From: Escherichia coli
GTDB taxonomy: Bacteria; Pseudomonadota; Gammaproteobacteria; Enterobacterales; Enterobacteriaceae
Strand: one strand, 5' to 3'
Assembly (NCBI RefSeq): GCF_965641715.1
Contig: NZ_OZ282453.1
DNA length: 64,000 nucleotides
A program made the translations under genes and the position numbers. A model generated the notes under the pieces. It was not told the origin of the DNA, did not search any database, and saw only the letters and a program-made list of their open reading frames with translations. Below are positions 51,983 to 57,543 of this stretch, one piece after another. The first letter of the stretch is position 1, and each line of letters starts with the position of its first letter.

Positions 51983-52389
51983 GTGAAAAGGTGGTGTTCA
52001 GTCAACTGAGCCGTAAATTTATTGATGAGAACGATGCCACGCCCGCCGAGGCGCAGCAGGTGGTCTATTACAGCCTGGCGATTGGTCACCACCTTGGGGT
52101 TATCGATTGCCTGGAAGCGGCGCTCACCTGCCCGTGGGATGAATATCTGGCATGGATTGCCACTCTGGAGGCGGGCAGCGAAGCCCGCCGCAAAATGGAA
52201 GGTGTGCCGAAATATGGTGAGATCGTCATCGACATTAACCATGTGCCGATGCTGGCCAATGCATTCGATAAAGCCCGGGCAGCGCAAACTTCGCAGCAGC
52301 AGGAATGGAGTACAATGCTGTTAAGTATGCTGCATGATATTCATCAGGAAAACGCCATCTATTTGATGGTGAGGAGACTGCGTGACTGA
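51979..52389 (+). CDS. hycH: Formate hydrogenlyase maturation protein HycH (136 aa)
   Basis: 136 aa, N-terminus [19 protein letters not shown]; overlaps hycG stop. Confidence 0.93.
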
Positions 52390-52852
52390 CGTTTTACTCT
52401 GTGTTGGCAATAGCATGATGGGCGATGATGGCGCAGGTCCGCTGCTGGCGGAAAAGTGCGCCGCCGCGCCGAAAGGTAACTGGGTGGTGATTGACGGCGG
52501 TAGTGCACCGGAAAACGACATCGTCGCCATCCGTGAACTGCGCCCTACGCGACTGCTGATTGTCGACGCCACGGATATGGGGCTAAACCCCGGCGAGATC
52601 CGCATCATCGACCCGGATGACATCGCCGAGATGTTTATGATGACTACCCATAACATGCCGTTGAACTACCTTATCGATCAGTTGAAAGAAGATATTGGCG
52701 AAGTGATTTTCCTCGGCATCCAGCCGGATATCGTCGGCTTTTACTACCCGATGACCCAGCCGATTAAAGATGCGGTAGAAACCGTTTATCAACGACTGGA
52801 AGGCTGGGAAGGGAACGGCGGATTTGCGCAGTTAGCGGTGGAAGAAGAATAA
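52382..52852 (+). CDS. hycI: Hydrogenase 3 maturation endopeptidase HycI (156 aa)
   Basis: 156 aa, N-terminus [22 protein letters not shown]; overlaps hycH stop. Confidence 0.95.
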   Translation: MTDVLLCVGNSMMGDDGAGPLLAEKCAAAPKGNWVVIDGGSAPENDIVAIRELRPTRLLIVDATDMGLNPGEIRIIDPDDIAEMFMMTTHNMPLNYLIDQLKEDIGEVIFLGIQPDIVGFYYPMTQPIKDAVETVYQRLEGWEGNGGFAQLAVEEE

Positions 52853-52894
52853 TTCTTCATCAGGGAATTCAGGGAATTGAACATCAGAACAGGG

Positions 52895-53650
52895 ATGTGC
52901 GCTTTTTTATTGAGCTTAGTGCAGCCTGCACAGGCCACCAGCTTTACCGAATATCTGCCAATGAGTGGCAGCGAATATGCGCAAAAGCGGGCGCTGAAAC
53001 CTCTCCTGACCATGCCTTATTATACCGAGCAAACTTGGCATTTTAGAAAAATCGGCGTTGCTGGCGTGACGCTTGAGAAGATGCCAAATGAGGAGGATTA
53101 CTGGCAATTAACCGCTAAAGACCGCGCCGGTAAATCCTGGACGGTGCCAGTGGGGTTGCTGGCAAATATGGCGGGCAAAGGGCAGCTCTATCGCGCCGAT
53201 CTGGATCGTAACGGCATTCAGGATCTGGTTATCTGGTTGCCAAGTGCCGCTAATGGTCTGGCGCCCTATGCACATTTAATCCTCATGACGTTCACGCGCG
53301 AAGGCCGTCCCTGTGTCTTTGAACCCTGGGGATTCTACACCGCAAACAAAACTGGCGTAGATGATTTGCTGGATTTGCAAGGCAATGGTCACACGCAATT
53401 GCTGGATATGCAGTTTAATTCTGGTTACTGGATAACCAGTCTGTATCAGGTAAAAGACGCCAAATGGCAGCGTGTTCACGGCTGGTTTGGCAAGTTAAGC
53501 TATCCCGCGCTCACGCGATTTACTTATACCCCCAACCGTAAACTCGTCCTCAAACCCATCGCCGGACGCGACCCGCAAACGGAAGATCTGGCGCTGACGC
53601 AGCGTTGCTTGATAAAGGGGGATGTGCTTGATGGGGTGAACCAGAACTGA
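52895..53650 (+). CDS. Hypothetical exported protein (about 251 aa, predicted signal peptide)
   Basis: ORF 52877..53650 with TTG start; more likely ATG at 52895 giving MCAFLLSLVQPAQA|TSF (signal-peptide-like, AQA cleavage motif); two D-x-D/Q-x-N-G repeats (DLDRNGIQDLV, DLQGNGHTQLLD); no family recognised. Confidence 0.65.
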   Translation: MCAFLLSLVQPAQATSFTEYLPMSGSEYAQKRALKPLLTMPYYTEQTWHFRKIGVAGVTLEKMPNEEDYWQLTAKDRAGKSWTVPVGLLANMAGKGQLYRADLDRNGIQDLVIWLPSAANGLAPYAHLILMTFTREGRPCVFEPWGFYTANKTGVDDLLDLQGNGHTQLLDMQFNSGYWITSLYQVKDAKWQRVHGWFGKLSYPALTRFTYTPNRKLVLKPIAGRDPQTEDLALTQRCLIKGDVLDGVNQN

Positions 53651-53703
53651 CTTTTTGCAGAGTGGCTATGTGGATTTTGGGGGTAATTATATAGCGCACA
53701 AGT

Positions 53704-53741
53704 GTTTACATATTGTGAACTTGGATTTGATGAGCTATAGT
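53704..53741 (+). promoter_or_regulatory. Candidate promoter with overlapping operator palindrome upstream of higB-like gene
   Basis: Imperfect inverted repeat GTTTACA-tat-TGTGAAC (53704..53720) overlapping a TTGTGA -35-like hexamer, 17-bp spacer, then TATAGT (53736..53741); about 70 bp upstream of toxin ATG. Confidence 0.35.
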
Positions 53742-53811
53742 TTCCGAACACATAAGGATAGAACTCGCAGATGTGGCTGTTTACTTACTATAAGGAAGTT
53801 AAAACTTAAAA

Positions 53812-54123
53812 ATGCACATCATTTCTAAAGCGCCATTTGAAGAGTGTGCGCGCAAATATCCTAACGACGCTCTGGCTCTACACTCATTGTATCGGGTTAT
53901 TAAGGAAACGGATTTTTCTACACCAGAAGAAATGCGAACGGCGTTTCCCAACCTCGACAATTTTAGATATCGCAACAAATGGTACGTTCTGGATGTCGGC
54001 GGGAACAATCTTAGGGTTATTGCCTACATAAACTTTGTTAATAAGCGGTTCTTTGTGAAGCACATAACGAATCACGCAGAGTATGACAAACTGACACGTT
54101 ACTACAGAGAGAACAAAGAATGA
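53812..54123 (+). CDS. HigB-like type II toxin (RelE/ParE superfamily mRNA interferase, 103 aa)
   Basis: 103 aa; shares the HigB pattern FPNLDNF.Y....YVLDVGGNNLRVIAY...........KHITNHAEYD with K-12 HigB as recalled; stop overlaps downstream ATG (ATGA). Confidence 0.8.
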   Translation: MHIISKAPFEECARKYPNDALALHSLYRVIKETDFSTPEEMRTAFPNLDNFRYRNKWYVLDVGGNNLRVIAYINFVNKRFFVKHITNHAEYDKLTRYYRENKE

Positions 54124-54539
54124 CTGCTAATGCTGCACGCGCTGTTAAAGCAACAAGAGAACTGGTCAATGCAGTCCCCTTTCTGGGAGGCAGTGACTCA
54201 GAAGATGATTATCGTGAAGCACTGGAACTGGTCGAATATTTGATTGAAGAAGATGACACCAATCCACTTATCGACTTTCTGGCGAGCCGCATTGCAGAGT
54301 ATGAAAACAACAACGAAAAGTTTGCAGAGTTCGACAAAGCCGTTGCGGCAATGCCGGTTGGCGTGGCGTTACTTCGCACGTTGATTGATCAACATAATCT
54401 GACCTATGCGGATTTGAAGAACGAAATCGGCTCTAAATCCCTGGTCAGTCAGATTTTGTCTGGACAACGATCCCTGACAATATCCCACATTAAGGCACTT
54501 TCAGCCCGATTTGGCGTTAAGCCGGAATGGTTTCTTTGA
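54120..54539 (+). CDS. HigA-like antitoxin (HTH XRE-family, 139 aa)
   Basis: 139 aa; VPFLGGSDSEDDYREALELVEYLIEED...NPLIDFLASRIAEYE...EFAEFDKAVAAMPVGVALLRTLIDQHNLTYADL...IGSKSLVSQILSGQRSLT parallels HigA; translationally coupled to toxin. Confidence 0.8.
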   Translation: MTANAARAVKATRELVNAVPFLGGSDSEDDYREALELVEYLIEEDDTNPLIDFLASRIAEYENNNEKFAEFDKAVAAMPVGVALLRTLIDQHNLTYADLKNEIGSKSLVSQILSGQRSLTISHIKALSARFGVKPEWFL

Positions 54540-54574
54540 TTTTGACTGATGCCAAACCCCAGATAGCCCGATGC

Positions 54575-54650
54575 GCAGTGCTTATCGGGCCTGCATAGTT
54601 CGTGCGACATGTAAGCCGGATAAGGCGTTCACGCCGCATCCGGCACGGTT
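54575..54650. repeat. REP/BIME element pair between higA-like gene and ascB
   Basis: gcccgatgcgcagtgcttatcgggcctgc and gccggataaggcgttcacgccgcatccggcac palindromes. Confidence 0.6.
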
Positions 54651-54652
54651 AC

Positions 54653-57543
<2,891 letters not shown>

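Follow-up and report, generated by a model that had tools for sequence, protein, structure and literature searches.

In a 64,000-nucleotide stretch of the Escherichia coli contig NZ_OZ282453.1 (hereinafter, the window), positions 52853-54652 coincide exactly with the spacer between the stop codons of hycI and ascB and contain three intact open reading frames (ORFs), for a putative exported protein and for homologs of the toxin HigB and the antitoxin HigA, as well as two repetitive extragenic palindromic (REP) sequences. The analysis described here indicates, with a probability that we put at roughly 0.78, that two modules, unrelated to each other and of different histories, make up this interval. 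The first (module 1, 52877-53650) would be an ancestral gene at the distal end of the hyc operon, encoding a small, exported, beta-rich protein with two FG-GAP/VCBS-like loops of the DxDxNGxxD type; it appears to have been lost repeatedly, in K-12 presumably by recombination between two 9-bp repeats. Module 2 (53651-54549) would be a self-contained, AT-rich higBA cassette that was probably inserted, within the E. coli lineage, immediately behind the module 1 stop codon and that seems to be decaying, with the toxin gene often deleted and the antitoxin gene kept intact, as is typical of decaying chromosomal toxin-antitoxin (TA) loci. All three genes are already annotated in RefSeq, and the TA pair is an automatically annotated paralog of a well-known family. 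The most useful new points are that the hycI-ascB spacer of K-12 is a deletion scar, that the histories of the two modules are separate, and that higA occurs more often as an orphan than in the intact pair. Our literature search found no paper on the exported-protein gene (including STM2844), on the higBA copy located between hycI and ascB, or on the hycI/ascB junction.

The three ORFs are genuine genes rather than chance ORFs because they are annotated by RefSeq in hundreds of genomes, the exported-protein gene shows a ratio of nonsynonymous to synonymous substitution rates (dN/dS) of 0.13-0.26, and the dN of higA is close to 0. The former values come from pairwise comparisons of intact copies and indicate purifying selection, so that a decaying pseudogene was rejected as an interpretation of these copies. 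An earlier reading of the window made from the sequence alone (the sequence-only reading) had stated that hycI and ascB are separated by a short spacer in K-12, and this is indeed the case: the distance is 158 bp in MG1655 (ascB ends at 2842414 and hycI starts at 2842573), compared with about 1.8 kb here. The suspected accessory status of the segment was borne out as well because K-12 lacks all three genes, and at least 80% of the 1.8 kb, with all three genes, is present in only 747 (13.8%) of 5426 complete E. coli genomes, the set to which all population counts given below refer.

In the K-12 spacer, ...TCAGGACAGGGATGT/TCTTGATGGGGTGAACCAG/CTCTGATGCC..., the start of the exported-protein gene is followed by its last ~26 nucleotides and then by the sequence that in the window comes after higA. 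The part of the start that is retained in this scar, CAGGGATGT (approximately the first 9 nucleotides), is fused as ...CAGGGATGT/TCTTGATGGGGTGAACCAG..., and the breakpoints of the deletion lie at the two copies of the direct repeat GGGATGTGC, one at the start of the gene and the other near its 3' end (Table 1). Because the K-12 spacer keeps both ends of the exported-protein gene, the K-12 state is, for this gene, derived and resulted from deletion. Furthermore, orthologs of this gene are found directly after hycI in Salmonella enterica (70% amino acid identity, with a gap of 27 nucleotides after hycI and followed by hydN), Klebsiella spallanzanii (62% identity), Escherichia albertii and the cryptic-clade strain Escherichia sp. 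MOD1-EC7003. Compared with Salmonella, the window shows a synonymous divergence (dS) of 1.58 in the exported-protein gene, 1.36 in hycI, 0.79 in hycH and 0.60 in hycG; the value for the exported-protein gene, set against that for hycI, is consistent with vertical co-divergence of the two genes. The GC content of the exported-protein gene, about 50%, is likewise native-like, given 53-55% in the hyc and asc genes; it is higB (40-43%) and, to a lesser extent, higA (46%) that deviate, in agreement with the sequence-only observation that the HigB-like gene is more AT-rich than its neighbors.

These observations bear directly on the view, put forward in the sequence-only reading, that a single islet comprising the whole 1.8 kb was acquired horizontally and inserted in an originally short, K-12-like spacer. 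Such a view would accommodate the small size of the K-12 spacer, the co-occurrence of all three genes in only 14% of the E. coli genomes, the AT-richness of higBA and the position of the REPs at one edge, but we consider it highly improbable. The finding that the K-12 spacer is a deletion product, made of ~9 first and ~26 last nucleotides of the gene, largely refutes it; Salmonella, E. albertii, K. spallanzanii and the cryptic Escherichia clade all have the gene after hycI and lack higBA; its composition is native-like; E. albertii has the gene together with an empty higBA site, so that the modules are separable; and no integrase, tRNA or insertion sequence (IS) element was found at the borders among the window ORFs and the RefSeq annotations of the matching loci. 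The islet interpretation thus survives for the higBA cassette, which shows a GC content of 40-46%, corresponds to an empty junction in E. albertii and K-12, and is missing in Salmonella, and fails for the exported-protein gene, which shows neither deviant composition nor absence from sister taxa and for which synteny, GC content, dS and the K-12 scar all point the other way.

The cassette begins right after the stop codon of the exported-protein gene and is bounded by two copies of the pentanucleotide ACTGA. In E. albertii, the gene order is hycI, exported-protein gene, ascB, and the junction, ...CAGAACTGA/TGGCAAAC..., is empty; the K-12 junction is empty in the same way (CAGAACTGA/TG), and the window reads ...CAGAACTGA(CTTTTTG...TTTTGACTGA)TGCCAAAC..., with the cassette in parentheses. 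Related cassettes, with 71-73% nucleotide identity over both genes, were detected on 542 plasmids, 467 of which come from Klebsiella, the hosts of the rest including Enterobacter, Leclercia, Serratia, Cronobacter and Salmonella; one further relative is encoded by the Cronobacter phage JK004. Together with the low GC content, these plasmid and phage relatives support a horizontal origin of higBA, as judged from sequence comparison. A 4.9-Mb record filed as a plasmid in PLSDB, NZ_CP134663.1, carries the chromosomal higBA locus with 97% identity and is evidently an E. coli chromosome.

The alternative is that the Escherichia ancestor already had higBA and that the lineages of E. albertii and K-12 lost it by precise deletion between the ACTGA repeats. 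Deletions dominate the history of this locus, with at least four independent ones mapped, and the cryptic-clade strain has a 30-nucleotide spacer that starts with CTTTT and ends with CAGACTGATG, resembling both cassette ends. Nevertheless, we regard an ancestral higBA as unlikely given that Salmonella and K. spallanzanii lack higBA at this site (the latter has ParDE and SymE instead), that the GC content of the cassette differs from that of either flank, and that the nearest relatives outside E. coli are plasmid-borne. The K. spallanzanii locus (L008, 5422-7814) has the order hycI, SymE_toxin, exported-protein gene, ParD/ParE, a second SymE_toxin and ascB; TA modules seem to have settled in the hycI-ascB gap repeatedly and in different genera.

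The locus is polymorphic among the E. coli genomes. The exported-protein gene is present at full length in 1462 genomes (26.9%) and gives some match in 2299, the additional 837 consisting mostly of the first ~164 nucleotides. Full-length higB was found in 1091 genomes (20.1%) and a 33-nucleotide 3' remnant alone in 581, whereas higA, always at full length, is present in 2508 (46.2%); the K-12-type scar characterizes 2422 genomes (44.6%). In 343 genomes (6.3%), an allele with higBA only is located directly after hycI, and these, with the 747 genomes that carry the whole segment, add up to 1090 and so account for nearly every copy of higB. Because higA is found in 2508 genomes and higB in 1091, approximately 1400 genomes would carry an orphan antitoxin gene, and the orphan is more common than the intact pair. 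Two deletions that create orphans were mapped: one (53674-54084) removed the promoter and most of higB, and the other (53059-54090) joined the first 164 nucleotides of the exported-protein gene to the last 33 nucleotides of higB, thereby placing higA just behind hycI. The orphan HigA protein is identical to the paired one (WP_000126294.1; dN close to 0). An active HigB, at present or in the past, would be expected to leave such a pattern, with the toxin lost and the antitoxin retained.

In rare variants of the deletion 53059-54090, one reading frame runs from the exported-protein gene into higA. The encoded E. coli proteins, of 202-209 amino acids (P0042, P0044 and P0046), consist of the signal peptide and about 50 first residues of the exported protein, a short linker specified by the 3' remnant of higB, and the full-length HigA; in one source, the product is named 'ygjM'. 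At another locus (L005), the exported-protein fragment ends at a stop codon, without fusion to HigA.

The assignment of the pair to the HigB/HigA families, suggested in the sequence-only reading, is supported by profile searches. Residues 22-93 of the 103-residue toxin match positions 4-73 of the 74-position Pfam model HigB_toxin (PF09907) of the RelE/ParE superfamily with an E value of 1.2e-22, and residues 1-100 match K-12 HigB (PDB 5IFG_A; E = 1.8e-21), with 38% identity over 99 amino acids in BLASTP; PGAP/RefSeq names the protein 'type II toxin-antitoxin system HigB family toxin'. In the C-terminal part, NHAEYD of this protein aligns with THKEYD of the K-12 toxin (an H-x-EYD stretch), a correspondence that is not a test of catalytic residues. 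In HigA, the helix-turn-helix domain HTH_3 occupies the C-terminal region (residues 85-138; E = 7.9e-9), and residues 9-138 align with K-12 HigA (5IFG_B; E = 2.5e-35). The start codon of higA overlaps the stop codon of higB (ATGA), and the toxin gene comes first, the inverted order among TA modules. The family PF09907 has been listed among the ribosome-dependent mRNases encoded in toxin-first order (PMC11980606), and K-12 HigB has been shown to cleave only mRNAs that are being translated, with HigA repressing the promoter and induction depending on Lon (PMC2814082).

The window pair closely parallels the K-12 pair HigB/HigA (YgjN/YgjM; 5IFG): the proteins belong to the same Pfam families, have nearly the same lengths (103 and 139 amino acids compared with 104 and 138), can be aligned over the full length, and are encoded toxin-first behind an upstream promoter with a palindrome-like motif. 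By homology, the expected mechanism is that HigB would act as a ribosome-dependent endonuclease cleaving mRNA during translation and that HigA would neutralize it and autoregulate the pair by repressing its own promoter through a conserved 19-nucleotide motif. At the same time, this is a paralog and not the K-12 pair itself, with a HigB only 38% identical, with a location between hycI and ascB (the K-12 pair lies between fadH and rlmG), and with plasmid-borne nearest relatives at the DNA level. The motif in question, GTGTTTACATATTGTGAAC, is 100% conserved in the allele with higBA only, despite the strong divergence of the rest of the upstream region, and is a candidate operator for HigA; a repeat search found no perfect inverted repeat at 53702-53720. 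A sigma-70-like promoter candidate upstream of higB (TTGTGA-17 nucleotides-TATAGT, 9 of 12 matches in a consensus scan) gains support from the fact that the conserved motif overlaps its -35 hexamer.

A different physiological role for the pair is suggested by PADLOC, in which HigB matches component A (E = 1.9e-15) and HigA matches the N-terminal part of component B (E = 2.4e-14) of PD-lambda-2, a validated phage defense system of E. coli. This system consists of a HigB-like protein, a fusion of HigA with a peptidase, and a third, P4-antitoxin-like protein (Vassallo et al. 2022, PMC9519451). Accordingly, HigBA might function mainly in abortive-infection defense against phages rather than as a stress or addiction TA module, a proposition that would be biochemically compatible with the mechanism outlined above and that could also draw on the presence of a relative on Cronobacter phage JK004. 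The resemblance extends to the HigB-like first component and to the HigA-like Xre domain with which the second begins. However, the HigA encoded between hycI and ascB, with its 139 residues, covers only positions 9-115 of the 402 in the component B profile and lacks the C-terminal peptidase domain, and no third ORF precedes the REPs, so that PD-lambda-2 as defined is absent from this locus. Moreover, the toxic part of PD-lambda-2 is B and not the HigB-like A (PMC9519451), so that the logic of that system may not transfer, and higB has been lost from more than half of the genomes that carry higA. We therefore consider a primary role in phage defense doubtful.

The exported protein has proved more difficult to classify. 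The sequence-only reading had described a protein of roughly 251 amino acids, starting about 40 bp after hycI, with a signal-peptide-like N-terminus; this corresponds to the RefSeq form, which starts 42 nucleotides after hycI, whereas the TTG at 52877 leaves a gap of 24 nucleotides. The 257-residue form is favored because the cryptic-clade ortholog has an ATG at the position of this TTG. The N-terminus of the longer form, MNIRTG-MCAFLLSLVQPAQA/TS (MNIRTG-MCAFLLSLV-QPAQA/TS, with the slash at the expected cleavage site), contains a hydrophobic segment, an N-terminal hydrophobic 10-mer is present in 56 of the 59 aligned family members, and the AlphaFold2 model has a low-confidence N-terminal helix at residues 3-13. 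A lipoprotein was rejected because a lipobox cysteine is absent after the hydrophobic core. Directly upstream of the TTG and extending into it, at 52860-52877, there is a tandem 9-bp duplication, TCAGGGAAT TCAGGGAAT, that yields two Shine-Dalgarno-like motifs (AGGGA); in K-12, the unit is diverged and present only once.

The claim that this protein belongs to no nameable family stands in that no match was obtained in Pfam (even at E values up to 10), NCBIfam, PHROGs or PADLOC, and does not stand in that an exhaustive search of 1.84 billion representative proteins returned 225 clusters (at 50% identity) with E values of 0.001 or lower, so that the protein is a member of a small, unnamed family. 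Most of the relatives are 330-360 amino acids long and possess an additional C-terminal domain of ~100 residues. Beyond enteric bacteria, genome matches came from metagenome-assembled genomes (MAGs) of Acidobacteria, an Obscuribacterales MAG and Thiolinea disciformis; the scan of the genome collection employed a single peptide pattern derived from a 12-sequence alignment, and the species list is accordingly incomplete. In the alignment of 59 sequences, D108, D110, G113 and D116 (DLDRNGIQDL) are at least 90% conserved and D166 is also nearly invariant; the segment conforms to the calcium-loop motif D-x-D-x-[DN]-G-x-x-D, from which calcium binding is predicted. Both DLDRNGIQDL and DLQGNGHTQLL resemble the calcium loops in the blades of FG-GAP/VCBS proteins, the integrin alpha-type beta-propellers, and some distant relatives are named 'VCBS repeat-containing' in UniProt. 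Among the 59 relatives, FG-GAP_3 was detected in 24 at E values up to 0.1, and FG-GAP or FG-GAP_3 in 3 at 0.001 or lower; the window protein itself gave no hit to either profile, nor to any other Pfam model at E values up to 10. When the family profile was compared to PDB sequences, only integrin alpha-V calcium loops were recovered, and these non-significantly (E of at least 0.8). The AlphaFold2 model, built with the 59-sequence alignment, is all-beta, with a mean predicted local distance difference test (pLDDT) score of 91.4 and a predicted template-modeling (pTM) score of 0.87. Foldseek found no neighbor for it in PDB (best E value 0.07, TM-score below 0.3) and in AFDB50 recovered only family members, named 'Periplasmic or exported protein' or 'VCBS repeat-containing protein'. 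Unlike the integrin-type propellers, the mature protein has only about 235 residues and hence is not a seven-bladed propeller.

Within E. coli, the identity between exported-protein sequences drops to 85%, with dS of up to 0.56 compared with 0.12 for hycG in the same pairs of strains. The replacements cluster in residues 45-155, whereas residues 160-257 are almost invariant, a pattern that fits a conserved core with a variable surface. In the comparison of the window (52382-53650) with loci L025 and L026, dS is about 0.12 in hycG, 0.06 in hycH, 0.30-0.34 in hycI and 0.50-0.56 in the exported-protein gene, and falls again in higB and higA (0.05-0.17); this peak suggests either old allelic lineages or recombination breakpoints centered on the gene. 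Frameshifted copies (755 instead of 756 nucleotides) are present in the E. albertii type strain NBRC 107761 (L011, 8001-8770) and in E. coli WCHEC025985 (L027, 2983-3744), the latter annotated as a 253-residue protein with an altered C-terminus. A 1647-bp contig labeled 'MAG: Collinsella sp.' (JAIJJM010000690.1; L010) is 89-97% identical to the E. coli sequence from the 3' end of hycI through the exported-protein gene to an orphan higA and is almost certainly a mis-binned Escherichia contig, not an actinobacterial Collinsella sequence.

As for expression, the exported-protein gene lies on the same strand as hycI at a distance of 24-42 nucleotides (27 in Salmonella), a scan detected no terminator-like site between the two genes, and the arrangement is conserved across genera. 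Given the short gap without a terminator, the gene would most likely be transcribed as the tenth cistron of the FhlA/formate-controlled hyc operon, and co-transcription, which the sequence-only reading had proposed, is plausible. The signal peptide implies that the product is most likely periplasmic, where, with low confidence, its most probable role would be that of a calcium-stabilized binding or inhibitor module and not that of an enzyme. K-12 is the reference organism for functional formate hydrogenlyase (FHL), and the FHL complex faces the cytoplasm. Because K-12 has an active FHL without the gene, the gene is not essential for FHL; this, together with the predicted export of the protein, makes it unlikely that the protein takes part in FHL directly; co-regulation with fermentation appears to be the more economical reading.

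A tie to hydrogen metabolism, with the protein serving as an accessory factor of [NiFe]-hydrogenase or FHL physiology, could be argued from one distant relative and from the fact that, in at least four taxa, the gene is found where the hyc operon ends on its 3' side. In Thiolinea disciformis DSM 14473 (L018, 1626-8909), a 326-residue relative with 36% identity is encoded 95 nucleotides downstream of, and on the same strand as, a cluster that includes the genes for the [NiFe]-hydrogenase large subunit, hypF, hypC, hypD and hypE. Thiolinea is the sole exception, though: the gene contexts of distant relatives, mostly on short contigs, showed no consistent operon partner, with such unrelated neighbors in Acidobacteria and metagenomes as argG, genes for cupin, YpdA, a response regulator and lactamase_B, and a fragment of a phosphotransferase system gene. 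On account of these unrelated neighbors, a fixed two-gene system was rejected as well. Considering also that FHL functions in K-12 without the gene, that FHL is oriented towards the cytoplasm and the protein has a signal peptide, and that 73% of E. coli genomes have no intact copy, we find the accessory-factor scenario very unlikely.

A second lead is structural. PliI-Ah, XAC2610 and Tsi1, which are inhibitors of peptidoglycan hydrolases, share a beta-propeller-like topology (PMC10933484), and the exported protein could be a periplasmic hydrolase inhibitor or immunity protein of the PliI/Tsi1/X-Tfi type, kept as an orphan immunity gene. One relative matches Pfam PliI with an E value of 0.027, the protein is predicted to be exported, and the within-species divergence concentrated in residues 45-155 would fit such a role. 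Yet the similarity to these inhibitors is marginal and was not recovered by Foldseek, no sequence-level relationship is apparent, no effector or partner hydrolase gene is located nearby (the gene lies between hycI and higB, with hydN in the place of higB in Salmonella), the overall dN/dS stays below 1, and most relatives carry the extra C-terminal domain and occur in unrelated contexts. We accordingly treat the shared topology as a lead and not as a classification, and an inhibitor function as unlikely; no specific function proposed for this protein is better than unlikely. There is, finally, an outside chance that the protein represents an unnamed family of periplasmic calcium-loop 'mini-propellers', which would have no Pfam model and, judging from the sequences recovered, most of its members in Acidobacteria, and that it is a tenth FHL cistron deleted in K-12, the recurrence in Thiolinea reflecting a real tie to hydrogen or anaerobic fermentative metabolism. 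If so, the protein could be a periplasmic defense or binding factor switched on together with FHL, and the picture of the hyc operon based on K-12 would be incomplete.

Several points weigh against the two-module reading as a whole or against parts of it. With a repeat of only 5 bp, an inserted higBA cannot be told from one that E. albertii and K-12 lost by precise deletion, and the 30-nucleotide spacer of the cryptic-clade strain could be a deletion remnant. The promoter match taken alone is not above the expectation from shuffled sequences, the exported-protein gene may start at either the TTG or the ATG, and the hydrophobic core of the E. coli signal peptide (MCAFLLSLV) is short. Co-transcription, export, toxicity and neutralization are all inferred. 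About 73% of E. coli genomes, including K-12, lack an intact exported-protein gene, so that any role of this gene is dispensable.

The findings overturn no known principle, but they modify the view of a classical operon. The textbook hyc operon of K-12 comprises nine genes. It now appears to be truncated, with the exported-protein gene directly after hycI in the ancestor of Escherichia and Salmonella, and about 27% of the sequenced E. coli keep this gene intact. If it is co-expressed with FHL, it would encode an uncharacterized, anaerobically induced envelope protein of gut isolates. Module 2, in turn, provides a clean series of natural stages in TA decay: the intact pair, the orphan antitoxin left by deletion of the toxin (in some cases fused behind hycI), and complete absence. 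The orphan HigA protein is invariant in about a quarter of all E. coli, and the related HigB toxins carried by Klebsiella plasmids offer a direct test of whether it has an anti-addiction or regulatory role.

Table 1. Features of the hycI-ascB interval and its flanks (coordinates in the window)
Feature	Coordinates	Strand	Remarks
hycI	52382..52852	+	156-aa ORF; HycI in RefSeq at matching loci; last gene of the hyc operon in K-12; left flank
Exported FG-GAP-like protein gene	52877..53650	+	257 aa from TTG 52877; RefSeq form 251 aa from ATG 52895
Predicted Sec-type signal peptide MNIRTGMCAFLLSLVQPAQA	52877..52936	+	cleavage expected after AQA; read from the sequence by eye
9-bp direct repeat GGGATGTGC, left copy	52892..52900	+	gene start; left breakpoint of K-12-type deletion
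9-bp direct repeat GGGATGTGC, right copy	53620..53628	+	near gene 3' end; right breakpoint of K-12-type deletion
higBA cassette	53651..54549	+	899 bp; bounded by ACTGA at 53646-53650 and 54545-54549
Candidate HigA operator GTGTTTACATATTGTGAAC	53702..53720	+	19-nt motif; overlaps -35 hexamer of candidate higBA promoter
Sigma-70-like promoter candidate	53713..53741	+	upstream of higB
higB paralog	53812..54123	+	103 aa; RelE-superfamily toxin; predicted ribosome-dependent mRNA endonuclease
higA paralog	54120..54539	+	139 aa; Xre-type HTH antitoxin and predicted repressor
REP-type palindrome pair (BIME-like)	54566..54644	.	54566-54590 and 54615-54644; between higA and ascB stop; inverted repeats, fold
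ascB	54653..56077	-	ORF; RefSeq annotation of matching loci; right flank

The remaining features of the interval are non-coding. A spacer of 161 nucleotides separates the exported-protein ORF from the higB ORF, and the REP pair at the ascB-proximal edge, already noticed in the sequence-only reading, consists of imperfect, GC-rich palindromes of the GCCGGATAAGGCG...CGCATCCGGC type that are typical of REP sequences and of bacterial interspersed mosaic elements (BIMEs). A search with the whole interval produced matches in 5425 of the 5426 genomes, the median number of places per genome being 9; among the matches listed, those outside the locus correspond to the REP-containing 3' end of the query. 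The REP region also resembles the REP-derived Rfam family naRNA4 (E = 8e-5, sub-threshold), and a small RNA at this position was rejected given that the score is below the gathering threshold and the match coincides with the REP. In E. coli 55989 (L024, 4491-5471), a transposase of IS621, a member of the IS110 family, is inserted in the REP region between an orphan higA and ascB. In some other E. coli (L006, 3247-3684; L025 and L026, 4738-5166), the entire ascFB region is missing, and what comes after higA is a small gene on the minus strand, given as DUF4259 in one annotation, and next hydN-hypF, an arrangement similar to that in Salmonella.

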